DNA from: a bacterium | GTDB lineage: Bacteria > J088 > JAWLBW01 | Direction: 5' to 3' | Assembly (NCBI GenBank): GCA_041690355.1 | Contig: JAWLHK010000002.1 | Span: 283,082-347,081, forward strand | DNA: 64,000 nt | In this document: positions 15,376 to 64,000 of the stretch, piece after piece | Layout of the letters: the number at the start of each line of letters is the position of its first letter | Position numbering within the stretch: the first letter of the stretch is position 1 | Translations under genes and position numbers: made by a program | Notes under the pieces: generated by a model | Seen by the model: the letters and a program-made list of their open reading frames with translations, nothing else | Database searches by the model: none | Told to the model about the DNA's origin: nothing

Positions 15376-15450
15376 TGGTGGGCGATGTAGGGATCGAACC
15401 TACGACTTCCACCGTGTGAAGGTGGCACTCTCCCGCTGAGTTAATCGCCC
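15376..15450 (-). tRNA. tRNA-Val (anticodon CAC)
   Basis: Minus-strand read GGGCGATTAACTCAGCGGGAGAGTGCCACCTTCACACGGTGGAAGTCGTAGGTTCGATCCCTACATCGCCCACCA folds as a cloverleaf: 7-bp acceptor stem, D and T arms, anticodon loop TTCACAC, encoded CCA. Confidence 0.9.
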
Positions 15451-37209: not shown

Positions 37210-38231
37210 GCAGCCCGCAGGCCAACGACGTCCGTCCCGAGGGTGATGCCCTCGATACCGCATGGGAAGAACCGCTGCGTCCGGTTCGCCTTGACGACTA
37301 CATCGGCCAGGCCGAAATGAAGGCCAACCTGAAAGTCGGCATCCAGGCGGCGCGCCAGCGTGGCGAACCCCTGGGGCACGCGCTGTTCTTCGGCCCGCCG
37401 GGGCTGGGTAAGACGACGCTCGCGCACATCATCGCCACCGAGATGGGGGGAGGCCTGCGCTCGACCGCGGGCCCCGTGCTGTTGCGCCAGGGAGATCTGG
37501 CGGGCATCCTGACATCGCTCGAAGCCAACGACATTCTCTTCATCGACGAGATTCACCGCCTGCCGCGGGCCGTCGAAGAAATCCTCTACTCGGCCATGGA
37601 GGACTTCAAGCTCGACATCCTGCTCGGCGCGGGGCCTGGCGCCCAGAGCGTGAAGATTGACCTGCCCCGCTTCACCCTCGTCGGCGCCACGACCCGCGCG
37701 GGCTCGCTTTCGACGCCGCTGTACGACCGCTTCACCTTTCACGAACACCTGAATTTCTACACGCCGGTCGACCTGCAGCAGATCATCGAACGGGCGGCCC
37801 GGCTCAATCGCATTCCCATCGAACCCGAAGGGAGCCTGGCGCTCGCGGGCCGTTCGCGGGGCACCCCGCGCATCGCGCTGCGCCTGCTCAGCCGGGTGCG
37901 CGACTTTGCAGAAGTGGGCGACGGTGTGATAGATGGTAAGACGGCCTGCGAGGCTCTCGATCGGCTGCACGTCGACGAGGCAGGGCTGAATATGATGGAC
38001 CAGAAGATTCTCCTGACGATACTCGAGAAGTTCAGCGGGGGACCGGTGGGGCTTGAAACGCTGTCGGCGGCCGTGGGCGAAGAAAAAGAGACCATCGAGT
38101 TCACCATCGAACCGTACCTGCTGCAGCAGGGCTTTCTTGCGCGTACGCCGCGCGGCCGCGTGCTGACGGAGCATGCCTACCGTCATTTCGGACGGAGCAT
38201 TCCTTCGTCGCAGAGGAAACTTTTCCCGTGA
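37206..38231 (+). CDS. ruvB: Holliday junction branch migration ATPase RuvB
   Basis: Walker [10 protein letters not shown], Walker B FIDEIHR, full RuvB length. Confidence 0.95.
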
Positions 38232-40645
38232 ACCTTACGTCCTACCTCCTGCGCCAGACGCCTGTCGAGCCGACCCTTCTCGAGCAGATACTCGCGTTCA
38301 CGCAGGACAATCCCCAGGTCATCGCCGGCGCGGGCGTGCTGCTCGTGGTGCTTCTGGTGCTGCGCAAGTTCATCGGCTCCGATGCGGGCCCCAAACCGGG
38401 CAAGCTCCCCCGCAATCCGAAACAGGCCCGCCGGTGGGCCGAGCTGTCGATTCAGGCCAACAAGTTTCGCCAGGCGGGCGACTTCTACCTCATCGCCAAC
38501 GAATACGAAGCGGCTTACAACGCGTTTGCGCGCGCCGCCGCTTACGACGAGGCCGCCGAGGCGGCGCTTGCGCTCGGTGCCAAGGAAAAAGCGGCGATGA
38601 TGCTCGAAAAGGCGAAGAAGTATGTCGCCGCCGCGAAGCTGTATCAGCAGTCGGGACGCTACAACGACGCCGGCGAGGTCTTCGCGCGTGCCGGTAACGA
38701 TACCCTTGCCGCCGAAGCCTTCGAGGCGGCTGGCAACTGGGGCAAGGGGGCCCTGCACTTCGAGCGCGCCCGCAACCACGTCAAGGCGGCCGACCTCTAT
38801 GTGAAGGCGCGGGATTTCAAGAAGGCCGGCGCCCTGTACGAAGCTGCCTACCGCGAGGCGCGGCAGCAGTCGAAGGAGAACCCCGCGCGGACGCGCCAGG
38901 CCGGCGAGTTCGCGCTCAAGGCTGCGGGCTGCTTTGAGAAGATCAAGGAAGTGAAACCGGCCATCGCCGTTCTGAGCGACGCCGGCTTCTTCGAAAAGGC
39001 GGCCGGCCTGCTGCGCTCGACCAACGATCTCGAGGGGGCCGCCGACCTCTACGTCAAGGCCAACCTCCCGCTGCAGGCCGCCGATCTCTACGTGCAGATG
39101 GGCGACCCCGAGCGCGCCGCCCGCCTCAAGGGCGATGTCCTGCGTTCGGAGGGGAACGAGCTGGCCGCCGCCGATAATTACCGGCAGGCCGGTGAGTATC
39201 TGGAAGCGGCCGAAATCTTCCGCCGGCACAACCATTACGCCGAAGCCGCCTCGATGTATCTGCAGGTGGGCGATTACCTGCAGGCAGGCGAAATGTTCCT
39301 GCGCGCCAAGGACCCACGCAAGGCGGCCGAGGCCTGGGAGCGCGCGGGTGACTATCGCCGGGCCGCCGAGGTCTACCAGCGGCTCGGCGACGGCCGCAAG
39401 CAGAGCGAACTGCTCGAGCGCGCCGGCGAGTCGTTCGAAGCCGGGCTGAATTACTACCGTCTGAAGCTCCCCGACGAGGCCGTGCGGGTGCTTTCGTCGA
39501 TTCCCGGCGAGCATCCCTCGTTCCGCAAGGCCTGCAACCTGCTCGGCGACATCTATCGCGAAAAGGGAGACGCGGCGCAAGCCGTCAAGAAGTATCAGCA
39601 GGCGGTCGAGGGGCAGAAGGTCAGTCAGGCCAACCTGCATCCCTATTACAATCTGGCGCGCGTGCTCGAAGAGTCGGGCGACCCGCGCCTCGCCTTCGCC
39701 CTGTTTCGCAAGATTCAGCAGGAAGACAGCCAGTTTCAGGACGTGGCGGCGCGCGTCAACACGCTCAAGTCGCGCGTCGAAGAGGCCGATCGCAAAGAGC
39801 GCGAGAAGACGGCGCCCCCCGATACGAGCACGGCCACGCCCGTGGTCGCGCGCGCCAAGAAGCGTTATACGCTGTTGTCGGAGATCGGCCGCGGCGGCAT
39901 GGGAATCGTCTACAAGGCGCACGATCAGGTGCTCGACCGTGTCGTCGCCTTCAAGGTGCTCCCCTCCGATCTGCGCAACAATGACGTGGCGGTGAAGAAC
40001 TTCCTGCGCGAAGCCAAGGCCGCCGCCGGGCTGAACCACCCGAACATCGTCATCGTCTACGACGCCGGCGAAGAGGGTGACAACTATTATATCGCCATGG
40101 AGTACATCGAGGGGCGTACGCTGCGCGACATCGTCGTCGCCGACGGCAAGATTCCGCTGCCCGGGCTCATGGTCATCACGGCCCAGCTCTGCCGGGCCAT
40201 GGAGTACGCGCACGGCCGCAGCGTGGTTCATCGCGACATCAAGGGCTCGAACATCATGTGGACCGACGCCAAGCTCGTCAAGGTCATGGATTTCGGGCTC
40301 GCCAAGGTCATTCAGGAAGTCGTCAACTTTCAGACCGTGGTCGGCGGCACCCCGCACTACATGGCGCCCGAACAGATCCTGGGCGAAGAAATCGACCGCC
40401 GCGCCGACCTGTATTCGCTGGGGGTCACGCTCTACGAGTGCGCCACGGGCACCGTCCCGTTTCCCAAGGGCGACGTCGGCTACCATCACATCCACACCCC
40501 TGCACCCGACCCGCGCGAGTTCAACAAGGATGTACCCGAGGCCTATGCCAAGCTGCTTCTGAAGTGCCTCGTGAAGGATCCGGCGGCACGCTATCAGAGC
40601 GCCGCCGAAATCTACGAGGACCTCAAGGAAATTCGGGTGCGATAA
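38228..40645 (+). CDS. membrane-anchored Ser/Thr protein kinase with TPR-like helical repeat region
   Basis: 805 aa; N-terminal TM; about 450 aa of Ala-rich repeats; C-terminal kinase domain ([29 protein letters not shown]); GTG start. Confidence 0.85.
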
Positions 40646-43074
40646 TGGACACGCAGGCCGTGCTCGAGCACCTGCAGCGCTTACCGCCCTGGGCCTGGGG
40701 CGCGGCCCTGCTGGGACTGGTGGCGCTGGTCTTCGCCGTGCGCGTTCTGAAGCGCTACGGCCGGCTGCGCCGTTACCCCGGTCTTCAGCCGCGGTTTCGA
40801 TCGGCGGCCGGGGCGCGCGTGCTCGCCGCGGCCGAGGCCTCCGAAAAGCGCGGTGCGTTCGAAGAGGCGGGAGATCTGTTTCTCCAGCTAGAACTCCACG
40901 ACGGCGCGCGCCGCAACTATCATCGCGCCCAGACCGGGTTGAAGCTGGCCGGCTCTTATCTCGCCACCGGGCAGAAGCTCGAGGCCGCCACGTGGTTCGA
41001 ACGTGCGGGGCGAGTCGACGAGGCGCTCGAACTGTACCTCGAAGTGGGCCAGATCGCCCATGCGGCACGTGCGGCGCAGTCGGCCGGTGACTTTCTGCAG
41101 GCGGCCCAGCTCTTCGAGGGGGCGGGCGATTTCGCCGCCGCGGCTCCCCTTTACCGGCGCATTCAGGACATTCCCAAAGCGTTCGCCTGCTATGAGAAAG
41201 CCGGCGAGCAGGGGGCGGCGGCGGCGCTGGGCGTCGAACACGTCGGCCAGATGCTCGCCGGGCTCCGGCAGGGGAAAAAGGCGAGCGCCGCCGACGTGCG
41301 CGAACTCGAGTCGCTCGCCGAGCGCGCGGCGGCGATCCTGGCAGAGTCGGAGAAGGCGAGCGACTGGGAGCAGGGGCTGCAGCTCTATCTCTTCGCGAAG
41401 CGGTGGGCGAGCGCGGGGCACCTTTTCCGCAAACTCGGCAAGCTCGAAAAGGCCGTCGAGCAGTTTCTGCGCGCCGGCGACAAACGCAATGCCGCCGACG
41501 TGCTCGACGAACTCGGCCGCCCCCGCGAGAGCGCGAAGCTCAAAGGCGAAGACTTTCTCGCCCGCGACATGCTGCGCGAGGCGGCCGCGCAGTTCGAGAC
41601 CGCCGAACTCTGGGAGCAGGCCGCCGAAGCGCTCGTCAAACTGGGCGACAACCTGAAGGCCGCCCTTCTGTTTCGCCGCATGAACATGCCGCTGCGCACC
41701 GCAGAGCTGCTGGAAAAGGAAGGGCAGTACGGCGAGGCGGCCGCCGCCTACCGCGAGGCGGGCGACGACGAACGCGCCCTGCACTGCTACGAGCAGTTGA
41801 GCGACTGGGGCGCGTATACGGAACTGCTCGAAGCGAAGGAGCGGTGGTACGAGGCCGGCCTGAATTACCTCAAGCGGGGGCTGAGCGACAAGGCAATCAA
41901 GGCCCTGCAGCGGGTCGACGAGCACGATCCGCGCTACGGGGCCGCGGCCCTCGCGCTCGGCGACCTCTTCGCCGAGAAGGGCATGCATGGCCTCGCGAAA
42001 GAAAAGTACCTGGCCCTCATCGGTGACGAGCGCATCCAGCGCCGGAACATCGAGGCCTATTACAAGCTGGCGCTCGCCTACGAAGCCAATCAGGAGCTCA
42101 ACCAGGCGCTCCAGACGTTCGAGAAGATCCTCGGCCTCGACTTTCACTTCAAGGACGTCGGCCAGCGCATTCACGATCTGAAGGAACGCATCGCCCTGCG
42201 CACCCCGTTCATGACGCCGGCGCAGAGCGGGGGCCAGCCGGTCGATCCCTTCGCCGCCACGCTCATGCAGCCGGCCCAGGCGGCCAAACGCCGGTATGAA
42301 ATCGTCTCTGAACTCGGCCGCGGCGGGATGGGTGTCGTCTACAAGGCGCGCGATACGGTACTCGACCGGGTCGTGGCCCTCAAGGTGCTCCCCCCCATGT
42401 TCCGCCAGAACGAGCTGGCCCTGCGCAACTTCTTTCGCGAAGCCAAGAGCGCGGCGGCACTTCAGCACCCCAATATCGTCACCGTCTACGATACGGGTGA
42501 AGAAGCGGGCAGTCCCTATATTACAATGGAATTCGTAGAGGGGCGCGATCTCAAGCAGATCGTGTCGGAGTCGGGGGCGTTTGCGCTGGGGCCGCTTCTG
42601 CTGGTGTTCGGGCAGATGTGCCAGGCGCTCACCTATGCGCACGAGCGATCCATCGTGCACCGGGATATCAAACCGAGCAACGTGCTGTGGACCAAGGACA
42701 AGCAGGTCAAGGTAACCGACTTCGGCCTCGCCCGCGCCCTGAACCAGGGTGCGAACACCATGACCACGACCGGCGGCACCCCCTACTACATGAGCCCCGA
42801 GCAGACGCTGGGCAAGAACCTCGATCACCGCACCGACATCTACTCGCTGGGGGTCATGATGTTCGAGCTGGCGACGGCGCGCCTGCCGTTCGAGGAGGGG
42901 GACATCGGGTACCACCACGTTCACTCCGAGGCGCCGAACCCGTCGGTGCACCGCAACGACCTGCCCCCGGCCATGAGCCGTATCATCCTGCGCTGCCTGG
43001 CCAAGAAGGCCGACGAGCGCTATGCGACGGCCGCCGACGTTTTTCGCGAGCTGCGCGAGTCCTTCGGCAGCTGA
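40645..43074 (+). CDS. membrane-anchored Ser/Thr protein kinase with TPR-like helical repeat region (paralog)
   Basis: 809 aa from MDTQAVL; same architecture (LGRGGMGVVYKA, HRDIKPSN, DFGLARA); ATG overlaps the upstream stop. Confidence 0.85.
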   Translation: MDTQAVLEHLQRLPPWAWGAALLGLVALVFAVRVLKRYGRLRRYPGLQPRFRSAAGARVLAAAEASEKRGAFEEAGDLFLQLELHDGARRNYHRAQTGLKLAGSYLATGQKLEAATWFERAGRVDEALELYLEVGQIAHAARAAQSAGDFLQAAQLFEGAGDFAAAAPLYRRIQDIPKAFACYEKAGEQGAAAALGVEHVGQMLAGLRQGKKASAADVRELESLAERAAAILAESEKASDWEQGLQLYLFAKRWASAGHLFRKLGKLEKAVEQFLRAGDKRNAADVLDELGRPRESAKLKGEDFLARDMLREAAAQFETAELWEQAAEALVKLGDNLKAALLFRRMNMPLRTAELLEKEGQYGEAAAAYREAGDDERALHCYEQLSDWGAYTELLEAKERWYEAGLNYLKRGLSDKAIKALQRVDEHDPRYGAAALALGDLFAEKGMHGLAKEKYLALIGDERIQRRNIEAYYKLALAYEANQELNQALQTFEKILGLDFHFKDVGQRIHDLKERIALRTPFMTPAQSGGQPVDPFAATLMQPAQAAKRRYEIVSELGRGGMGVVYKARDTVLDRVVALKVLPPMFRQNELALRNFFREAKSAAALQHPNIVTVYDTGEEAGSPYITMEFVEGRDLKQIVSESGAFALGPLLLVFGQMCQALTYAHERSIVHRDIKPSNVLWTKDKQVKVTDFGLARALNQGANTMTTTGGTPYYMSPEQTLGKNLDHRTDIYSLGVMMFELATARLPFEEGDIGYHHVHSEAPNPSVHRNDLPPAMSRIILRCLAKKADERYATAADVFRELRESFGS

Positions 43075-55321: not shown

Positions 55322-55767
55322 CCGTCCGCGTTCCCGTCCGCGTCCTGCCGCACGCGGCCGACCTCCCGCTGCCTGGCTACGCGACGGCTCACGCCGCCGG
55401 ACTCGATCTGCTCGCCGCCGTCGACGCCGACGTCCTGCTGGCTCCGATGCAGCGCGCCGTTATCCCCACCGGGCTGTGCGTGGCGATCCCCGAAGGGTGG
55501 GAGGCGCAGGTGCGCCCCCGGTCGGGGCTTGCCCGCAATCACGGCGTCACCTGCCTGAACACGCCCGGAACGATCGATGCCGATTACCGCGGCGAGATCG
55601 GCGTTCTGCTCGTCAACCTCGGCGCCGAGCCCTTCGCCGTGTCTCGCGGCATGCGCATCGCCCAGCTCGTCGTGTCTCCGGTGGGCCGCATCGAGTGGGA
55701 ACCTGCGACCGAGCTTCCGCCCACGGTGCGCGGCGCGGGCGGCTTCGGCAGTACCGGCGTCGCCTGA
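55318..55767 (+). CDS. dut: dUTP diphosphatase
   Basis: 149 aa with dUTPase motifs ([20 protein letters not shown]). Confidence 0.9.
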
Positions 55768-55837
55768 GGCGCCCACCCGGAAATCTTCTGCCGGCAGGGT
55801 CCTTCAGCAGACGGTCGCCCCGGTTTACAATGGGCCT

Positions 55838-56611
55838 GTGCCCCGCGTCGATCTCCACTCTCATCTCATCCCCGGCGTCGACGACGGCGTGCGCACCCTT
55901 GATGATGCTCTGCGGTGCATCGAGGGGCTCGTCGAGCGTGGATACGATTGCCTCTGCACGACGCCCCACCAGGCCGACCGCTGGCGCCCCGACGCCGCCT
56001 TCCTGACCGCCGCCCTGCGCGGGTTGCGCGAAGAGATCGACCGGCGCGGGTGGCCCGTGCGGCTCGCCCTCGGCGCCGAGAACCATCTCGACGAGGTCTT
56101 TCTGACACGACTCGAGCAGGGGACCCTGCCCACGTACGGCCTCGCCGGCCGCGACGTGCTCGTGGAGTGCCCGGTTTGGTCCCGGCCGCCGTTTCTTGAA
56201 GAAATCCTCTTCCGCCTGCAGACAGGCGGGATACGGCCGGTTCTTGCCCACCCTGAGCGCTATCCGTGGCTGGTGCGCGACAGGGCGCGCGTTGCGGCCC
56301 TCCGGAACGCGGGGTGCCTGTTCCAGGTCGACCTCGGGAGCTTCGCCGGGGCATACGGCAGCGAGGCAAGACAGGCGGCGCGGCGGCTCGTGCGCGAGAA
56401 AGCCGTCGATCTCGTCGCGACCGACCTGCACGGTGCCGGCCGCCTGCCCGCCCTGGTCGACGCCGGGTGGCAGGCGCTGGCCGAACTGGCCGGCCCGGCC
56501 GAGCTGGCGCGGTGGGGATCTGCGACCCCCGGCGAGATCTTCGCGCGTGCCTGGACGGGCGCCTGGGGGCAAGAAATCGCTCACCCCCCCGAACCGTCTG
56601 CCGATATCTAA
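55838..56611 (+). CDS. PHP-domain protein-tyrosine phosphatase (CpsB/YwqE-like)
   Basis: N-terminal VDLHSHLIPGVDDG metal-binding motif; GTG start. Confidence 0.7.
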   Translation: MPRVDLHSHLIPGVDDGVRTLDDALRCIEGLVERGYDCLCTTPHQADRWRPDAAFLTAALRGLREEIDRRGWPVRLALGAENHLDEVFLTRLEQGTLPTYGLAGRDVLVECPVWSRPPFLEEILFRLQTGGIRPVLAHPERYPWLVRDRARVAALRNAGCLFQVDLGSFAGAYGSEARQAARRLVREKAVDLVATDLHGAGRLPALVDAGWQALAELAGPAELARWGSATPGEIFARAWTGAWGQEIAHPPEPSADI

Positions 56612-56662: not shown

Positions 56663-58576
56663 ATGGTCGTTTGGCCTCGCGATGTGGCGTCGCCGATGTC
56701 ACACGGGAATTTCGCCTGGGCGCAGCGCATGAGTCTTGTCGGCAACATTGAGGATCTTCCGCTCACGGACATCCTCCAGATCGTTTCGCTCAGCCGAAAG
56801 TCGGGTGTTCTGGCATTGAAGCGCGAGGGGGCTGAGGCCGCGATCTGCTTTCAGAACGGGCTCGTCGTCGCTGCCTCCATCACCGACTTCCCGCTCGACC
56901 TGCTGGCGTTTCTGCGCCGCAAGGGCCTGCTGACCCCGGCCGACGAAGCCGACGTCCGCCAGCAGGTACAGGACGGCATTCCGGTGGCCGAAGCGCTTGC
57001 AAACTTCGCGGTCCCCGACACCGTCATCGAAGGCTTTTCCCGCGCGGCGATCGAAAAGGTGGTCTACCGTCTGTTCACCTGGCGCGAAGGCTCGTTCACA
57101 TTCGATCTGATGGATGGGGCCGAAGAGCGTTTCCGCGCGAATCCGCTGCATCCGTTTCTCGCCCAGGGGGTGAACCCGCAGTTTCTCGCCATGGAAGGGG
57201 CGCGCCTGCAGGACGAGAGCGACTATTTCACGACGAAAAGCCCCGGCGCTGCGCCTTCGCCTGACCCCGCGCCGGCCCCGGCCGCGAAGCCCGAGCCCCG
57301 TCCCGCGCAGGCGGCCCCGAGCGAGCCTCCGGTCGCGCCTGCGCCGCCTCCCGCTCAGCCTGCGCGCGCCGCCGCCCCCGCGACGGCCCCCGCGACGGCC
57401 TCCGGTGCGGCCTCCAGTGCGGCCCCCCGGCCGTCGGCCGCCGCCGCTCCGGCGCCGGCCCTCAACGACCGGCCGCTCGTCGCCATCGTCGACAACGACG
57501 CCGTCGCGCTCAAGAACATCGAAAACGTGCTCCTGCAGCGCGGCTACGAAGTGGCCGCCTTTGCCCGCGTCGAGACCGTCATCAACGCCGTGCGCGAGCT
57601 CCTGCGCAAGGGGCGGCCGCTCATCGTGCTGGCCGACCTCGTCATGCCCAAGCGCGATGCGAGCGGGATGCTGGGCGGTCTCGAGGTGCTCGAGCTGCTG
57701 CGCGCCGAAGAGCAGGACGTGCCGATCGTCGTGCTGGCCGACATCAACAATGCCGATGCCGAAGCGCGCGCCCGCGAACTGGGGGCCGACGGCTACGTCT
57801 CGAAGCCGGGCCGCAAGTTCTACGTCAAAGAAAAAGAAAACAACACGCCCGAGTTTCTGACCTTCATGGCCGGCCTGGCCGCCGAGATCGAGCGGCTGAC
57901 CGAGAAGGCACGCGGCATTTCGGCGTCTCCGGCCGCCTCGCCGTTCGTCGATCTGAGCACCGAGCTCAAGGGCGAGCTCGAGGCTGCGACCCATGCCGTG
58001 AGCGCCACGGCCCCCGTCATGGTGCCGGGCATCGAAAAATCGCGCGGCCTCGACATGCTCAAGGAGATGGTTCGCGAACTCAACGATCCGCACTTCAACG
58101 CCGACGTCTCGCTGCTTGTGCTCCGTTTCGCCGTCGAGCTCATGGATCGGGCGGTGATCTTCGCCGTGACGCCGCAGGAAGTCATCGGCCTCGGGCAGGC
58201 AGGCATCGACGCCCCCGACGCGACGGCGCGCGTGCGCTCCATGCGGGTGCCCCTCGCCGGGAGCTCGATTTTCTCCGACGTCGTGCGCATGAACGGCGCG
58301 GTGCGCCGCAAACTCGATTCCAGTGAGTGGAACCGGTATATTCTCGACCAGCTCGGCGGCCAGCGCCCCGAAGAATCCTTCGCGGCCCCGATTTTCACGA
58401 GCCGGCGCATGGCCGCCGTCGTCTACGGCGACAATGCGTCGAGCGGGCGCCCCATCGGAGACGTCGATGCCCTCGAAATTTTTCTTTCGCACGCCGGCAT
58501 CGCCATGGAGCGGGCGCTGCTCGAGCGGCGGCTGCGCGACTTGACAGGCAGCCAACGCATCCACTATGCTGATTGA
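56663..58576 (+). CDS. DUF4388 - receiver (REC) - GAF-like multidomain regulator
   Basis: DUF4388-like N-terminus, Pro/Ala-rich linker, REC domain (LADLVMP, YVSKP), GAF-like C-terminus; true start may be ATG 56696 or 56729. Confidence 0.75.
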   Translation: MVVWPRDVASPMSHGNFAWAQRMSLVGNIEDLPLTDILQIVSLSRKSGVLALKREGAEAAICFQNGLVVAASITDFPLDLLAFLRRKGLLTPADEADVRQQVQDGIPVAEALANFAVPDTVIEGFSRAAIEKVVYRLFTWREGSFTFDLMDGAEERFRANPLHPFLAQGVNPQFLAMEGARLQDESDYFTTKSPGAAPSPDPAPAPAAKPEPRPAQAAPSEPPVAPAPPPAQPARAAAPATAPATASGAASSAAPRPSAAAAPAPALNDRPLVAIVDNDAVALKNIENVLLQRGYEVAAFARVETVINAVRELLRKGRPLIVLADLVMPKRDASGMLGGLEVLELLRAEEQDVPIVVLADINNADAEARARELGADGYVSKPGRKFYVKEKENNTPEFLTFMAGLAAEIERLTEKARGISASPAASPFVDLSTELKGELEAATHAVSATAPVMVPGIEKSRGLDMLKEMVRELNDPHFNADVSLLVLRFAVELMDRAVIFAVTPQEVIGLGQAGIDAPDATARVRSMRVPLAGSSIFSDVVRMNGAVRRKLDSSEWNRYILDQLGGQRPEESFAAPIFTSRRMAAVVYGDNASSGRPIGDVDALEIFLSHAGIAMERALLERRLRDLTGSQRIHYAD

Positions 58577-58602
58577 CGTTTTGCCTCCGGAGCCGCTATC
58601 GC

Positions 58603-58986
58603 GTGGGAAAAAAACTCCTGGTGGCCGAGGATTCGGCTACCATGCGACAACTGATCGTCGCCGCCCTCAGTCGGATTCCCGACCTTGAGATCGTCGAGTG
58701 CCAGAGCGGCTTTGAAGCCCTCAAGGCCATCCCACGGGTGCGTTTCGACATGGTGCTCACCGACATCAACATGCCCGACATCAACGGGCTCGAGTTGATC
58801 GGTTTTCTCAAGAGCAACCCCGATACCCGGAACATTCCCATCGTCATCATCACGACCGAGTCGAGCAAGCGTGATCAGGTGAAAGGCCTCGCCCTCGGGG
58901 CCAGCGAGTACCTGATCAAGCCGTTCTCTCCCGAGCGGCTGCAGGAGCTCGTCAGCCGGCACCTCCAGATACAGCTTCCCCAATGA
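58603..58986 (+). CDS. cheY: CheY-like single-domain response regulator
   Basis: KKLLVAEDS, MVLTDINMP (phospho-Asp), YLIKP; GTG start at 58603 preferred over TTG at 58573. Confidence 0.85.
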   Translation: MGKKLLVAEDSATMRQLIVAALSRIPDLEIVECQSGFEALKAIPRVRFDMVLTDINMPDINGLELIGFLKSNPDTRNIPIVIITTESSKRDQVKGLALGASEYLIKPFSPERLQELVSRHLQIQLPQ

Positions 58987-61058
58987 AAGACGACAAGGCC
59001 CTCCAGGAGTTTGTTTCGGAGAGCGAAGAGATCATCGAGGAGATCTTTCAGAACCTCCATGAGATCGAGGGGAGCATCGATCAGGGGCGCTACAACCCCG
59101 AAACCCTGAACGCAATCTTCCGCGGCGCGCACTCCATGAAGGGGCTCGCGGGGATGTTCGGTTTCGAGGGGATCCAGAGCTTCGCCCACCATCTCGAGGA
59201 CCTGCTCGACAAGCTGCGCCTGGGCAAGCTCACGTTCGACAAGCCGATTCTCAACCGGCTGTTTTCCAGCATGGAGTACCTGCGCAGCCTGGTGGCCGAC
59301 CGGGCGCAGGGAAAAGCCGACGACATGGCCGCCATCGACGAGCGCATCCGCGAGCTGCAGGCCATGCTCGCCGGGGGCAAGGGCGGGGCAGAGTCGAACC
59401 CCTTCGAGGGGGTAGCCCTCGATCCTGGCCTGCTCGGCGTGCTGACGGAGTACGAAGAATACCGCCTGAAGACCAACATCGAACAGGGTCATAACCTGTT
59501 CCGCGTGCGGGCGACGTTCGACATCATGAGTTTCGATCAGGAGCTCGACGGCATCACGAAGAAGCTCAAGGGGATGGGGGCCGAGCTCATCACGACCCTC
59601 CCGAGCCCCGAGCCGGCCAAGGAGATGGAGATCAAGTTCGATCTCGTCGCCGGAGGCGATCGGCCGCTGGCCGACCTCGAAGCCGAACTGGCCGCCCCGA
59701 ACGTGACCGTTACCGAAATCGAGCAGGCGAGCAAAAAAAAAAGGCCGTCGCCGGGAGTAGCCGGCACGGTTGAGAGCTTCCTCCAGGCGCAGGCGCCGAG
59801 TGGAACCGTGGTCGACGATGACGACGCCGGCCGCAGAGACGAGGCCACCTCAATCCGCAGCGTTTCGAAAACGGTGCGCGTCGATATCGACAAGCTCGAT
59901 ACGATCATGAACGTCGTGGGCGAGCTCGTTCTCTACTCGTCGCAGATCAACCGCTTCGCCGAAAAACTGCGCCTCGAGCAGGGCAACACGGGCCCCTCGG
60001 CGCAATTCTTCAAGGCCAGCCGCGCCCTCGAACGCAAACTGCGCGAACTGCAGGACGGCGTCATGGATACGCGCATGGTGCCGCTCAAGCAGGTGTTCGA
60101 CAAACTCCAGCGCATCGTGCGCAAGATTGTGCAGGACGTCGGCAAAGAAGCCGAGCTGGTCATTCTGGGCGGCGAGACCGAGCTCGATAAGCTGATCATC
60201 GAAGACCTCGGCGATCCGCTCATGCACATCATCCGCAATTCCGTCGACCACGGGCTCGAAACCCCCGACGAGCGCGAGAAGGCCGGCAAACCGCGCAAGG
60301 GAACGATCCGCATCCACGCCTACCAGCGCGGCAACCACGTCAACCTCGAGGTTGAGGACGACGGCCGCGGCATCGACCGCGAGCGCATCCGCAGGAAGGC
60401 GCGCGAAAAGCGGCTGGTCGACAACGTAGATGCCCTCAAGGACGACGAGGTGCTCAGCCTGATCTTCCTCCCCGGCTTCTCGACGGCCGAGAAGGTCTCT
60501 GAGCTTTCGGGGCGCGGCGTGGGACTCGATGTCGTCAAGGAGAACATCGCGCAGATGCGCGGGCTCATCAACATCGATACCGAACTCGGCAAGGGAACCA
60601 AGTTCACGCTCACCCTGCCGATCACGCTGGCCATCATCCGCGCCCTCATCATCGAGGCCCGCGGACGGCTCTATGCGATTCCGCTCAGTTCGATTCTCAC
60701 CTCGCTCATGATCGAGCCCCGGCAGATACGCACCATCGAGCGGCGCGAGGTCATGGAGTTCCGTCATCAGAATGCGGTGCAGACGCTGCCGCTGCTGCGG
60801 CTCGAGCGCATCTTCGACCTGCGCCGCGACACGGCCGAGGCGGGCGAAAGCCTCTACGTCGTCGTGCTCGAGCTGGCCGATCGCCGCCTGGGGCTGATCG
60901 TCGACCGCCTGCACGGACAGCAGGATATCGTCATCAAGTCGATCAGCGACGTCCTGCGCACGCGCGGCATCGCGGGGGCCACGGATCTGGGGAACCAGCA
61001 GACGATTCTCGTCCTGGACGCCGCGGCCCTGATCGACGAGGCCGCGCGCGGAGTCTGA
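58983..61058 (+). CDS. cheA: chemotaxis histidine kinase CheA
   Basis: Hpt (HSMKG), dimerisation and HATPase regions, C-terminal CheW-like domain; no fused receiver. Confidence 0.95.
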   Translation: MKDDKALQEFVSESEEIIEEIFQNLHEIEGSIDQGRYNPETLNAIFRGAHSMKGLAGMFGFEGIQSFAHHLEDLLDKLRLGKLTFDKPILNRLFSSMEYLRSLVADRAQGKADDMAAIDERIRELQAMLAGGKGGAESNPFEGVALDPGLLGVLTEYEEYRLKTNIEQGHNLFRVRATFDIMSFDQELDGITKKLKGMGAELITTLPSPEPAKEMEIKFDLVAGGDRPLADLEAELAAPNVTVTEIEQASKKKRPSPGVAGTVESFLQAQAPSGTVVDDDDAGRRDEATSIRSVSKTVRVDIDKLDTIMNVVGELVLYSSQINRFAEKLRLEQGNTGPSAQFFKASRALERKLRELQDGVMDTRMVPLKQVFDKLQRIVRKIVQDVGKEAELVILGGETELDKLIIEDLGDPLMHIIRNSVDHGLETPDEREKAGKPRKGTIRIHAYQRGNHVNLEVEDDGRGIDRERIRRKAREKRLVDNVDALKDDEVLSLIFLPGFSTAEKVSELSGRGVGLDVVKENIAQMRGLINIDTELGKGTKFTLTLPITLAIIRALIIEARGRLYAIPLSSILTSLMIEPRQIRTIERREVMEFRHQNAVQTLPLLRLERIFDLRRDTAEAGESLYVVVLELADRRLGLIVDRLHGQQDIVIKSISDVLRTRGIAGATDLGNQQTILVLDAAALIDEAARGV

Positions 61059-61060
61059 TC

Positions 61061-61876
61061 ATGTACGAGGAATTTTTCGGACTCAGCGCCCGCCCGTTTC
61101 AGAAGACCCCCGATCCCGCATTTCTCTATCGCGGACGCAAGCACGCCGAGGCGCTCACGCGCATGATATACGCGGCCGAAGAGCGCGAGCTCATGGTGCT
61201 CACCGGTGAGATCGGCGCCGGCAAGACCACGCTCACGCGCGCCCTCGCCGACGAACTTCCCGAAGACCGGTATCGCATCGTCCTGCTCATCAATCCCCGC
61301 ATCTCGGCGCTGCAGCTGCTTCAGGCCCTGGCCGAGCGGCTCGGGCTCGAGAACGCGCCCCGGCAGCGGGTGCGCCTGCTCGAGGCCGTCCAGGCGCGCC
61401 TTTACGAGCTCGATCAGCAGGGGGTGACGCCTGTGCTGATCATCGACGAAGCCCAGATGCTCCCCGGCAAGGACATCTTCGACGAGCTGCGGCTCATTAC
61501 GAACTACCAGCTCGACGATCGCAATCTGCTGGCCGTTCTTCTCGTCGGTCAGCCCGAACTGAGCAGGCGCCTCGCACACCCGAGCTATCGCGCATTGCAG
61601 CAACGAGTGGGAATCCGGTATCATCTTGAGGCACTGGATGAACAGGAAGTGCGGGAATATGTTGACTTTCGCACGGAAGTTGCCGGGCGCGGCGCGCCGC
61701 TTTTCACCACAGAGGCGGTCGCCGCACTGTTCCGTCTGAGCGGCGGCATACCCCGCGTCATCAACAATCTTGCGGCCAGCGCGTTGCTGAGCGGCTTCGG
61801 CAAGGGCGAAGACCCGGTCGACGCCGCTTCGGTCGAAGACGCGGCCCGCGAGCTTCAGCTGGTGCAGGTGGGGTGA
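61061..61876 (+). CDS. ExeA/GspA-like AAA ATPase
   Basis: FGL..RPF N-terminal motif, Walker A GEIGAGKTT, Walker B LIIDEAQ, GIPRVIN C-terminal motif. Confidence 0.8.
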   Translation: MYEEFFGLSARPFQKTPDPAFLYRGRKHAEALTRMIYAAEERELMVLTGEIGAGKTTLTRALADELPEDRYRIVLLINPRISALQLLQALAERLGLENAPRQRVRLLEAVQARLYELDQQGVTPVLIIDEAQMLPGKDIFDELRLITNYQLDDRNLLAVLLVGQPELSRRLAHPSYRALQQRVGIRYHLEALDEQEVREYVDFRTEVAGRGAPLFTTEAVAALFRLSGGIPRVINNLAASALLSGFGKGEDPVDAASVEDAARELQLVQVG

Positions 61877-61877
61877 G

Positions 61878-62744
61878 GTGGATTTACTCGAGATCCGCAA
61901 GAAAGCGCGCGCGCAGAAGAAAGCCGGGTCGACCAAGGACGATGCCCCCGGGGCGTCTGCGCCTGCCGTCGTCCCGGAGGCAGCTGCTGTTGCCGAAGCG
62001 CCTCCTGCGGCCGCATGGCCGGCCGGGGCCGTGCAGCACGTGCCCGCGCCTGCGGCGACCCCTGCGGCTTCAGACGAACCGGAAGTGCCCGCCTGGACGG
62101 CCGACGAGTTCGAGCATTTCCTGCAGAGCGGACCTTCTGCGCCCCCGGCGGCGGCCTTCGCCGCGCCTGCGTCACAGGCTGTGCCGGGCGGCTATCCCGC
62201 AGGGTCGGCCAGGGGCGACAGCCTGCGCGACTCGCTGCTCAACGCCGACTTTCTCGAACTGGCGACCGAAGAGCTTTACCGCCACACGTACGACGTCGAG
62301 ACGCCCGACACGGCATTCCGGCAGGTGCTGGCCTGTCTGCTCGCCGACGAGGAGTACGGCATCGACATTCACGGCATCCGCGAAATCATCAAGCCGCGCG
62401 ACATCACCGAGGTGCCGCGCGCCCCGCGCTACGTGCTCGGGATCATCACCCTGCGCGGCCGGGTCATCCCGGTGCTCGACCTGCGCGAGCGCCTGGGACT
62501 CAGCGTGTCGCCGTTGGGGCGCCAGAGTAAAATTGTCGTCGTGGCGCACCGGGAGAGCTTCTTCGGGCTGCTCGTCGACGCCGTCATCGACGTCGCCAAG
62601 ATTCCCGAGCCCTCCATCGAGAGCACGAGCGCGGTCATGGTCGGGGTCGACGGCAAGTATCTCGAAGGGATCGGCCGCGTCGGAGATGAAATGATCATCC
62701 TGCTCAACCTCGGCGAAGTTCTGAATATCGAGGGCCAGTCGTGA
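61878..62744 (+). CDS. CheW-domain protein with Pro/Ala-rich N-terminal extension
   Basis: About 140 aa low-complexity extension then CheW domain; GTG start. Confidence 0.8.
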   Translation: MDLLEIRKKARAQKKAGSTKDDAPGASAPAVVPEAAAVAEAPPAAAWPAGAVQHVPAPAATPAASDEPEVPAWTADEFEHFLQSGPSAPPAAAFAAPASQAVPGGYPAGSARGDSLRDSLLNADFLELATEELYRHTYDVETPDTAFRQVLACLLADEEYGIDIHGIREIIKPRDITEVPRAPRYVLGIITLRGRVIPVLDLRERLGLSVSPLGRQSKIVVVAHRESFFGLLVDAVIDVAKIPEPSIESTSAVMVGVDGKYLEGIGRVGDEMIILLNLGEVLNIEGQS

Positions 62745-63268
62745 AGACCGAATACCGTAGCCGGCACGATGAGATTCAGCTTGCGGTGCTCGTGGTCGGG
62801 GGCGAGAAGTTCGCGCTCGACATCATGCGCATCATGGAAATACAGCGGTCGCAGACCATCACGCGCATGCCCAAGGTGCCCGACTTTCTCGAAGGGGTCA
62901 TCAACCTGCGCGGTGCGGTCATTCCGGTCGTCGACATGCGCAAGCGGCTGGAGCTCACCGTCACGCCGACCTCGCGCAAGACGCGCATCGTCATCGCCAA
63001 CGTCGGTGGCAAGATCGTCGGCCTGCTCGTCGACGAGGTCAGCGAAGTCATTCGCGTCGCCCGCTCAGACATCGGTCCGGCGCCCGCCCTGACCCGCGGC
63101 ATCGGATCCGAGTACATCATGGGGGTCGTCAAGCGCAAAGACGAGCTGCTCCTGCTGCTCGATTTCGAACGCATCCTCAGCACCGAAGAACGCGTGAAGA
63201 TCGACGAGATCAAGAAGCGCGCCCGCGAAACGGCGCAGCCGGCGGGAGAGGCGGTGAAGCCGGCATGA
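62741..63268 (+). CDS. cheW: chemotaxis coupling protein CheW
   Basis: 175 aa single CheW domain; GTG start overlapping upstream stop. Confidence 0.9.
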   Translation: MKTEYRSRHDEIQLAVLVVGGEKFALDIMRIMEIQRSQTITRMPKVPDFLEGVINLRGAVIPVVDMRKRLELTVTPTSRKTRIVIANVGGKIVGLLVDEVSEVIRVARSDIGPAPALTRGIGSEYIMGVVKRKDELLLLLDFERILSTEERVKIDEIKKRARETAQPAGEAVKPA

Positions 63269-64000
63269 GCGCGCGCAACTCCAGCATCGCCAGGCAGTTC
63301 ATCACCTTCATTTCGGTCGTCGTGGCCGTTCTGTCGGGCGTGCTCTCGATCGTCTTCTTCTTCAATTCCCGGACGCTGCTGAACGAAGAGCTCGATCGGC
63401 GCGGCCTGCTCATCACGCGGCAGCTCGGCTACGGGGCCGACGTCGCGATCATGAACAACTCGCTGATGTACCTCGACCAGAAAATCGACAATTTTCTCGG
63501 CGACAGCGACATCGCGTTCATCATCTATCGGAACAAGGAAGGGCTCGTCCTGCGCGACTGGTATCAGGAGCAGGACATGCGCGACGAGGTCAACAAGGAC
63601 CCGCAGGCCGACCGGTACCGATTTCGCGGCTACGAGATCCGCCACATCACGCGGCCGGTGACCTCGGTGACGACGACGCTCAGCGCCGATATCTTCGCCG
63701 TCTTCGGTGAAGAAGAAAGCGCCGGTGAGTCGGCCGCCACGTCGACGGTCGAGACGGTAGGCCTGGTCGAAGTCGGCATCAGCACGAAGAACATTCTCGA
63801 GCGCCTGCAGGACATCCTCTACAAGGCCATCGGCATCGCCGTGACGGGCGTGCTCATGGCCATTCTGCTCTCGTATTTCTACATTACCTACACGACGCGT
63901 CCCCTGAAGCGCATGGTGGGTGCGGCGCGCAGCGTGGCCGAGGGCAATCTGGCCGTTTCGATTGACGTCGACTCCACCGACGAGATCGGCGACCTGGCCC
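63265..64000 (+). CDS. methyl-accepting chemotaxis protein, 5' part (continues beyond window end)
   Basis: ATG at 63265 overlaps the cheW stop; TM1, about 170-aa sensor region, TM2, HAMP onset (RPLKRMVGAARSVAEGNLAVSIDVDSTDEIGDLA); absent from the ORF track because no stop is reached. Confidence 0.8.
   Translation, partial: MSARNSSIARQFITFISVVVAVLSGVLSIVFFFNSRTLLNEELDRRGLLITRQLGYGADVAIMNNSLMYLDQKIDNFLGDSDIAFIIYRNKEGLVLRDWYQEQDMRDEVNKDPQADRYRFRGYEIRHITRPVTSVTTTLSADIFAVFGEEESAGESAATSTVETVGLVEVGISTKNILERLQDILYKAIGIAVTGVLMAILLSYFYITYTTRPLKRMVGAARSVAEGNLAVSIDVDSTDEIGDLA

Follow-up and report, generated by a model that had tools for sequence, protein, structure and literature searches.

A chemosensory gene cluster lies at the 3′ end of a 64,000-nucleotide stretch of bacterial DNA (positions 283,082 to 347,081 of contig JAWLHK010000002.1, assembly GCA_041690355.1; hereafter the window), where positions 56663-64000 are occupied by seven genes, all on the + strand. 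With a probability of roughly 0.8 this cluster is a non-flagellar chemosensory operon of the type represented by the electrode-sensing network (Esn) of Geobacter and by Che8 of Myxococcus xanthus. As such the system is already catalogued, its mechanism unsolved, and the window contributes a new member with a gene for a methyl-accepting chemotaxis protein (MCP) inside the cluster rather than a new kind of system. An earlier note, made from the sequence alone, had proposed the order DUF4388-REC-GAF regulator, CheY, CheA, ATPase, extended CheW, CheW and receptor, and this order was borne out when open reading frames (ORFs) were combined with Pfam and NCBIfam profile scans of the region (Table 1).

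Correspondence with the Geobacter and Myxococcus clusters

The protein encoded by the first gene, in which DUF4388 is the PATAN domain, retrieved 'response regulator [Geobacter]' proteins when used as a query, one of which lies in the complete Geobacter genomes AP028967.1 and AP028061.1 (loci L084 and L085). The genes at these two loci follow the order era, engA, PATAN-REC (561 aa), CheY, CheA, AAA_22 (267 aa), CheW (252 aa), REC, CheW, Zn-ribbon-REC, HEAT, CheR and CheB, with a GAF gene then following in L084 while L085 stops at CheB. Each of six window proteins has its positional counterpart in L084 as its best blastp match, with identities of 38% for PATAN-REC, 55% for CheY, 47% over 694 aa for CheA, 49% for the ATPase, 36% for the extended CheW and 48% for the second CheW. 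The layout of L084/L085 matches that published for GSU2226 to GSU2213 with the locus tags fitting one for one, and the window genes are collinear with the Geobacter positions GSU2224 to GSU2218, matching the first seven positions of the cluster type. In G. sulfurreducens, GSU2225 is EngA, GSU2224 a response regulator, GSU2223 CheY-6 and GSU2222 CheA (PMC8242959), with the CheA encoded by GSU2222 also known as EsnC, GSU2221 as an 'ATPase' and the CheW encoded by GSU2220 as EsnB (PMC5585712).

The Esn mutants fail at electrode colonisation, and Chan et al. found that growth on electrodes, and not that on Fe(III) oxide, suffers when esnB or esnC is deleted or GSU2221 carries transposon insertions (PMC5585712). 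Tran et al. described the 'beta group' che cluster, which is cluster 5 of G. sulfurreducens, as a conserved feature of delta-proteobacteria, M. xanthus among them, and cited unpublished che5 knockouts with an altered extracellular matrix (PMC2577667). Thomas et al. reported synteny between che8 of M. xanthus and the cluster of G. sulfurreducens (PMC2330069).

The window resembles Geobacter che5/Esn (GSU2212-GSU2224) in having the same gene order through the second CheW and the same N-terminal peptide on the extended CheW, with its relatives adding Zn-ribbon-REC, HEAT, CheR, CheB and GAF genes, and in an ATPase that shares a clade with the copies from Geobacteraceae and Desulfuromonadales. The two differ in the additional REC that Geobacter encodes between its CheWs and in their flanks, which are pnp-M16-CpsB in the window and era-engA in Geobacter. 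The likeness to M. xanthus Che8 (MXAN_4751-4759) is drawn from the description in the literature and not from sequence, with Che8 comprising two CheW proteins, a CheA with a dimerisation domain and no REC, two CheY proteins, CheR and CheB and no MCP (Moine et al.; PMC3945109). Che8 differs in having a CheW8b of only 188 aa and in that cheA8 (4758) and cheW8b (4757) are consecutive by locus tag, for which reason the ATPase is probably absent from M. xanthus Che8.

Conservation of the gene order and the downstream half of the operon

The ATPase was used as a query against one genome per species, yielding 80 loci. In all 15 loci at 47-82% ATPase identity the ATPase gene lies between cheA and a cheW, with the PATAN gene and cheY before them, the loci coming from an unclassified metagenome-assembled genome (MAG), Nitrospirota/Thermodesulfovibrionales, Desulfuromonadales, Geobacteraceae and 'Deltaproteobacteria', while no che genes were found near the ATPase in the 65 loci at 42% identity or below. 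The shared order was present in L001-L015, L081, L083, L084/L085 and L087, more than 20 loci overall, which represent Desulfuromonadales/Geobacter, Nitrospirota, Bdellovibrionota and the lineage of the window itself. The arrangement is far beyond chance.

The closest relative, L001 (ATPase 82% identical), has the upstream pnp-M16-CpsB synteny in common with the window and, past its second cheW, encodes a HAMP-MCPsignal receptor (703 aa), a Zn-ribbon-REC protein and a HEAT-repeat protein (654 aa), then CheR and CheB, and lastly a GAF protein and a REC protein. By Pfam labels the same downstream gene set is present in L081 (77%), which has truB-rpsO-pnp-M16-dut-CpsB in common upstream, and in L083 (Bdellovibrionota, 58%). 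HEAT, CheR and CheB were detected in every locus that reaches far enough (tblastn and ORF clustering), usually with the GAF protein and REC after CheB, with MCP and Zn-ribbon-REC confined to some lineages.

The lack of CheR and CheB pointed out in the earlier note is true within the window, and its use there as an argument for a non-flagellar role fails. The window stops at 64000, the cheR and cheB genes of L001, L081 and L083 sit 4-6 kb beyond the position corresponding to the window end, and since all long-enough relatives encode both, the absence is best read as a window-edge artefact. The region appears to be the promoter-proximal half of a 13-gene operon about 15 kb long, with the window ending within the receptor gene. 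The downstream sequence had also been named as the place where a standard flagellar chemotaxis operon might come to light; in the relatives cheR and cheB are indeed found there, but among HEAT, Zn-ribbon-REC and GAF genes and with no flagellar operon.

A number of individual loci carry features of their own. In L001 (17366-18225) cheR appears to be broken into two ORFs that overlap (205 aa and 100 aa), probably by a frameshift or an assembly error, whereas the CheR of L081 is intact at 276 aa. In L008 (5421-8282) the extended CheW and the next MCP form a single ORF of 953 aa, either a true fusion or a sequencing artefact. In L087 (11647-14640; ENA contig_12171) the extended CheW is separated from two MCP genes by an insertion with genes for two multihaem cytochromes (649 and 337 aa), a 644-aa ORF and a gene for an ABC substrate-binding protein, and it is possible that these cytochromes link this chemosensory class physically to extracellular electron transfer. 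Only CheY, a 674-aa CheA-sized protein and the ATPase are kept together in L086 (7619-13435; JGI Ga0314848_000003), the next genes, on the opposite strand, encoding a 402-aa Ras/Arf-like small GTPase and a GAF-GGDEF protein.

Organization of the cluster in the window

Table 1. Features of the chemosensory cluster and of the gene preceding it in the window; the starts of the first two cluster genes are the preferred ones.
Feature	Position	Strand	Support
CpsB/CapC-type PHP tyrosine phosphatase	55577..56611	+	CpsB_CapC 127 bits; outside conserved cluster
PATAN(DUF4388)-linker-REC-GAF response regulator	56729..58576	+	DUF4388 75 bits, Response_reg 54 bits
Single-domain CheY-type REC	58603..58986	+	Response_reg 90 bits
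CheA histidine kinase, 691 aa	58983..61058	+	Pfam Hpt, H-kinase_dim, HATPase_c, CheW-like P5
che-linked AAA+ ATPase, 271 aa	61061..61876	+	AAA_22 91 bits
Extended CheW, 288 aa (EsnB/GSU2220 position)	61878..62744	+	CheW 118 bits, residues 149-283
N-terminal peptide (V/M)DLLEIRKK of extended CheW	61878..61904	+	Motif conserved across loci
Canonical single-domain CheW, 175 aa	62741..63268	+	CheW 129 bits
5′ part of transmembrane-HAMP chemoreceptor, 245 codons	63265..64000	+	HAMP 44.5 bits; truncated by window end

The ORF of the first gene opens at ATG 56663 and spans 637 aa, with the PATAN domain at residues 27-186 and the receiver at residues 273-383. Homologues align only from residue 23 on, and on this basis ATG 56729 (MSLVGNIEDL) is probably the start. 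The putative phospho-acceptor Asp and the Lys-Pro pair of its receiver are present when the translation is read by eye, unaligned. The cheY ORF opens at TTG 58573 (137 aa) with GTG 58603 the likelier start, and the acidic pair, phospho-acceptor Asp, Thr and Lys of a canonical receiver were likewise read by eye in the translation. CheA carries one Hpt domain and no fused REC (Pfam).

The receptor had been called an MCP in the earlier note, of which the transmembrane (TM) part and HAMP are within the window and the MCP signalling part is not, the latter being supported through the homologue in L001. The fragment comprises two hydrophobic segments and HAMP and shares 57% identity with the N-terminal part of the 703-aa protein of L001, and a full MCP gene stands at this position in L001, L081, L083 and the Nitrospirota loci. 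The L001 MCP aligns gap-free to the chain of T. maritima TM1143 (2ch7) over residues 337-615; TM1143 is a receptor of the 44H class. The Geobacter genes are annotated as 40H-associated (PMC5585712).

With the preferred starts the junctions between successive genes are +26, -4, +2, +1, -4 and -4 nt. The PATAN-CheY junction is +26 or -4 nt according to the start codon chosen, giving three or four overlapping junctions and two abutting ones. The overlap is ATGA between cheY and cheA and GTGA between the extended CheW and second CheW genes, while the ATPase gene begins 2 nt past the cheA stop and finishes 1 nt ahead of the start of the extended CheW gene. GC content at third codon positions (GC3) is even over the cluster genes at 0.78-0.88, with that of the ATPase at 0.78. 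Scans for sigma-70 promoters and terminators were at background within the cluster, and the sigma-54 consensus was matched less often than in shuffled sequence, with no match upstream of the cluster. Given the tight junctions, the uniform GC3 and internal signals not above background, the ATPase gene belongs to one transcription and translation unit with its che neighbours, and the separate transcription of the ATPase that had been envisaged as a counter-argument is not what was found.

The C-terminus of the first gene product matches the Pfam GAF_2 profile at 18 bits, under the gathering threshold of 28.6, and eight of ten orthologues likewise give sub-threshold GAF matches at E <= 0.05 (best E 5.7e-5). 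An AlphaFold (AF2) model of residues 455-637 from 31 homologues had a mean confidence (pLDDT) of 90.7, and the top 50 PDB matches to it by Foldseek were all GAF domains (probability 1.00, TM-score about 0.6). The assignment of GAF in the earlier note, below threshold in Pfam, is therefore confirmed at the level of the predicted fold. In the Nitrospirota-type loci (L002-L004, L007-L009, L087) the first gene encodes PATAN and a GAF-like C-terminus with no receiver. Because REC is absent from these versions the conserved core of the protein is PATAN plus GAF, and for the same reason its phosphorylation is not universal within the cluster type.

The che-linked ATPase

The che-linked ATPases (n = 16) form a single clade with no other sequences in a neighbour-joining tree, the non-che ATPases (L016-L080) falling outside it. 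The window protein has the Walker A motif GEIGAGKTT, the Walker B motif IIDEAQ and GIPRxIN, and GxxGxGKTT, IIDEAQ and GxPRxIN are kept in all che-linked copies. In a PDB sequence search MuB was the only relative of solved structure (E 2e-7), with no close one. An AF2 model of the ATPase (pLDDT 92.8) gave MuB filaments as its best fold match (E 8e-12), followed by ORC/Cdc6, RuvB and TnsC. MuB, ORC/Cdc6, TnsC and RuvB are oligomerising AAA+ assemblies and not secretion motors of the GspE/PilB type. As modelled, the che-linked ATPases are MuB/ORC-like AAA+ proteins rather than secretion motors.

The earlier note had placed a secretion-type ATPase between cheA and cheW; the position is correct, while 'secretion-type' overstates the likeness, which extends only to a shared AAA+ module. 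That module, an AAA_22 domain of about 270 aa, is common to ExeA/GspA of the type II secretion system (T2SS), MshM of the MSHA pilus and the TIGR03015 ATPases, with an N-terminal MY..FFGL...PF...PDP, Walker A, DEAQ and GxPRxIN as motifs that the ATPase has in common with ExeA/GspA/MshM, and JGI labels relatives of the ATPase 'ExeA/GspA'. Unlike these proteins, the che-linked ATPase falls in a separate clade, has neither a TM segment nor a peptidoglycan-binding domain and lacks ExeB, msh or eps genes as neighbours: it ends at 271 aa with no other Pfam domain, and no gsp genes are present in the window. Its best NCBIfam family is TIGR03015, the XrtA/PEP-CTERM-associated ATPase, with a score of 233.5 bits where the cut-off is 324.5. 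A literature search for an ExeA-type ATPase together with CheA/CheW found nothing relevant. Among the non-che relatives, those of the Acidobacteriota MAGs at L024, L034, L044 and L046 occur as two tandem paralogues about 1.3 kb apart.

That the ATPase is the remnant of a mobile element within the che operon (an AAA_22 helper of the IstB/TniB/MuB kind) or a defence-system NTPase is a negligible prospect and was rejected, since for all that MuB and then TnsC are its nearest solved relatives, its position is kept across phyla with a vertical-looking clade structure, there is no transposase, repeat or composition shift, and the weak matches to IS21 IstB and, when the ATPase and the PATAN protein were scanned with PADLOC, to defence families are at the level of the P-loop, confined to the Walker A region and far under the cut-offs.

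The peptide-tagged CheW

The CheW encoded directly after the ATPase has an N-terminal extension of 148 aa, consisting of a short peptide and an Ala/Pro-rich linker of about 140 aa ahead of the CheW domain. An alignment of the extended CheW from 15 loci begins with M-D/N-[LI]-x-x-[IV]-R-K-K, followed by 70-150 unalignable residues, acidic or Pro/Ala-rich, and then the CheW domain. When 88 sequences were searched in six frames with the regular expression M-D/N-[LI]-x-x-[IVL]-R-[KR]-[KR], 20 matches at start codons were found, of which all but one (19/20) open the gene directly 3′ of a che-linked ATPase, and a variant, MDIL-x-ARKKA, is present in L008, L083 and L087. Overall the opening of this CheW reads M-D-[IL]-x-x-[IVA]-R-K-K, with the peptide occurring once in each locus and always past the ATPase gene. 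The Geobacter counterpart of this peptide-tagged CheW is EsnB. Since the peptide is conserved and its gene adjoins that of the ATPase, it is proposed as a candidate docking or activating peptide that may tether the ATPase to the array or activate it there.

In Vibrio the parC-parP-cheW genes, of which ParC/ParP serve to position the chemotaxis array, encode an ATPase, a CheW-like protein with a short N-terminal peptide and linker, and a plain CheW. The window has the same succession of an ATPase gene in the che operon, a peptide-linker-CheW protein and a normal cheW. ParC and PpfA of Rhodobacter are ATPases of the ParA/MinD type with a deviant Walker A motif, from which the window ATPase differs in being an AAA+ protein (with MuB, ORC, TnsC and RuvB as neighbours) that has no Pfam match to the ParA/MinD family. 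The relation to ParC/ParP would thus be one of analogy and not of homology. It is put forward tentatively, as a suggestion more likely to fail than to hold, that the AAA+ ATPase and the peptide-tagged CheW are a previously unrecognised accessory module of the array, a non-ParA counterpart of ParC/ParP, which would act in Desulfuromonadales, Nitrospirota, Bdellovibrionota and the window lineage as an ATP-dependent oligomerising switch for array assembly, placement or output coupling.

Output of the system

The following scheme would be consistent with the gene content. The TM-HAMP receptor, the two CheWs and CheA would form a signalling array in which CheA phosphorylates the stand-alone CheY, the receiver of the PATAN-REC-GAF protein, the downstream RECs and CheB, with CheR and CheB providing methylation-based adaptation. 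The ATPase would be an integral component of the array, tethered by the peptide and flexible linker of the adjoining CheW, and as an ATP-dependent oligomerising switch it might assemble, position or remodel the array or recruit its target, in functional analogy to ParC/ParP. Output would be transmitted by contacts between proteins, made by the PATAN domain and probably also by the HEAT-repeat protein; in Che7 of M. xanthus a HEAT-repeat protein is the partner of CheY7. The target of that output would be a machine of the cell envelope or surface, whether a type IV pilus or T2SS-like apparatus or matrix production, and not the flagellar switch. PATAN is the output module of the cyanobacterial PatA-type regulators and binds PilB1 and PilC (bioRxiv 10.1101/2021.06.11.447907). 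This precedent, that of the HEAT protein in Che7, the T2SS and pilus names borne by the ATPase family and the Geobacter phenotypes point towards an envelope or surface target. The window is like the cyanobacterial Tax/Pix systems in that a che-like operon opens with a PATAN-REC regulator beside a plain CheY, and unlike them in that the regulator has an added C-terminal GAF (with REC lost in Nitrospirota) and that CheR, CheB, HEAT and the ATPase are present, while its CheA differs from those of the type IV pilus class (Pil-Chp) and Tax in having neither a C-terminal REC nor multiple Hpt domains.

That the system serves specifically to control a type IV pilus or a T2SS-like pseudopilus, with PATAN acting on the PilB/PilC motor as it does in cyanobacterial Tax systems and an MshM/ExeA-like ATPase aiding pilus or secretin assembly, is rather unlikely. 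The pairing of a PatA-type PATAN-REC, here with an added GAF, with CheY is in keeping with it, as are the naming of the ATPase family at JGI after T2SS accessory ATPases and the finding that pil genes are also transposon-sequencing hits for Geobacter electrode growth (PMC5585712). Against this, pil or gsp genes are adjacent in none of the more than 20 loci, the single-Hpt CheA with no REC is unlike ChpA or the cyanobacterial hybrid CheA, and the ATPase lacks the TM and peptidoglycan-binding part of ExeA and is sub-threshold for its best named family, so that the link is at family level only.

A regulator of exopolysaccharide or matrix production of the Dif or PEP-CTERM kind, with an EpsA-like (TIGR03015) ATPase and CpsB in the pathway, is unlikely. 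The best NCBIfam match of the ATPase, the gene for the CpsB/CapC phosphatase directly upstream in the window, L001 and L081, and the altered matrix of the Geobacter che5 knockout (Tran et al.; PMC2577667) would all fit such a role, but the TIGR03015 score is well under the cut-off, the non-che ATPases are outside the che-linked clade, CpsB is adjacent in one lineage only and across a gap of 117 nt, and the flanks showed no CheC/DifG, glycosyltransferase, Wzx/Wzy or PEP-CTERM genes.

An ordinary flagellar chemotaxis operon, in which the ATPase is an unrelated gene between cheA and cheW, is highly improbable and already largely refuted. All the core Che proteins are present, cheR and cheB follow in the relatives and CheY has the canonical receiver residues, as a flagellar system would have them. 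Yet no flagellar, motor, CheZ, CheC, CheD or CheV genes were found in the 64-kb window or in the 10-kb flanks of the related loci; the cluster has PATAN-REC-GAF, HEAT, Zn-ribbon-REC and GAF genes among its conserved members; the ATPase, from a che-specific clade, lies 2 nt and 1 nt from its neighbours and has the same GC3 as they do (0.78 as against 0.80-0.86); and the Geobacter orthologues have an electrode-colonisation phenotype and not one of swimming. The proposal of the earlier note that this is a Che-like module controlling something other than flagellar rotation is thus supported, because of the orthology to Esn/Che8 and the lack of flagellar linkage and not because of missing adaptation genes.

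A number of points weigh against assigning the window cluster to the Esn/Che8 type with an envelope target and a tethered ATPase. The Geobacter cluster has no MCP, whereas the window lineage, Nitrospirota and Bdellovibrionota encode one or two within the cluster, and with a TM-HAMP receptor gene at 63265 the window departs from the description 'no mcp in cluster' of Tran et al. (2008); the Desulfuromonadales clusters have none, with the Geobacter receptor EsnA (GSU1704) encoded elsewhere, and the in-cluster MCP is regarded as a lineage variant and not as a different system. The downstream half, beyond window position 64000, is reconstructed from relatives and would hold for the window by extension. 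The proposed interaction between ATPase and peptide is argued purely from adjacency and conservation, and the primary partner of the ATPase may be CheA rather than CheW, since in L086 the ATPase adjoins CheY-CheA with no CheW following. Pilus, secretion or exopolysaccharide genes are conserved beside the cluster in no lineage, its flanks being housekeeping genes, and for this reason the output target is a guess from family-level associations. Finally, the electrode and matrix phenotypes are known only for G. sulfurreducens. As nothing outside the cluster is conserved beside it, the effector of an Esn/Che8-type operon in this lineage is to be sought among the cluster members or elsewhere in the genome.

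Surroundings of the cluster

The upstream part of the window holds housekeeping genes, including bipA, a GH92 glycosidase, an H+-pyrophosphatase, coaBC, ruvAB, two TPR-Ser/Thr kinases, nusA-infB, a DHH protein, truB, pnp and an M16 peptidase, and no flagellar, pilus, secretion or polysaccharide-export genes were found across its 64 kb. The CpsB gene, separated from the probable start of the PATAN gene by the gap of 117 nt given above, stands next to the cluster only in the window, L001 and L081, the other phyla having no such adjacency. The two kinases, at 38228-43074 past ruvAB, are tandem paralogues with TPR repeats of 805 aa and up to 938 aa, their ORFs overlapping as listed, and the second probably starts later. 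A tRNA-Val(CAC) gene at 15376-15450 on the - strand, far from the cluster, is the sole Rfam/ARAGORN match of the window.

Significance

As regards the window, the outcome is chiefly a correction, and what deserves further attention is the conserved ATPase clade together with the tagged CheW. This type of cluster forms the genetic core of the Geobacter electrode-sensing network, and few chemosensory classes besides it have a clear non-motility phenotype. What is new is that the operon including the ATPase is conserved well beyond Geobacter, that the ATPase has a dedicated clade and that a peptide-tagged CheW follows it. The vague annotation of GSU2221 as an 'ATPase' is thereby given a specific hypothesis, testable by mutation in an existing genetic system.

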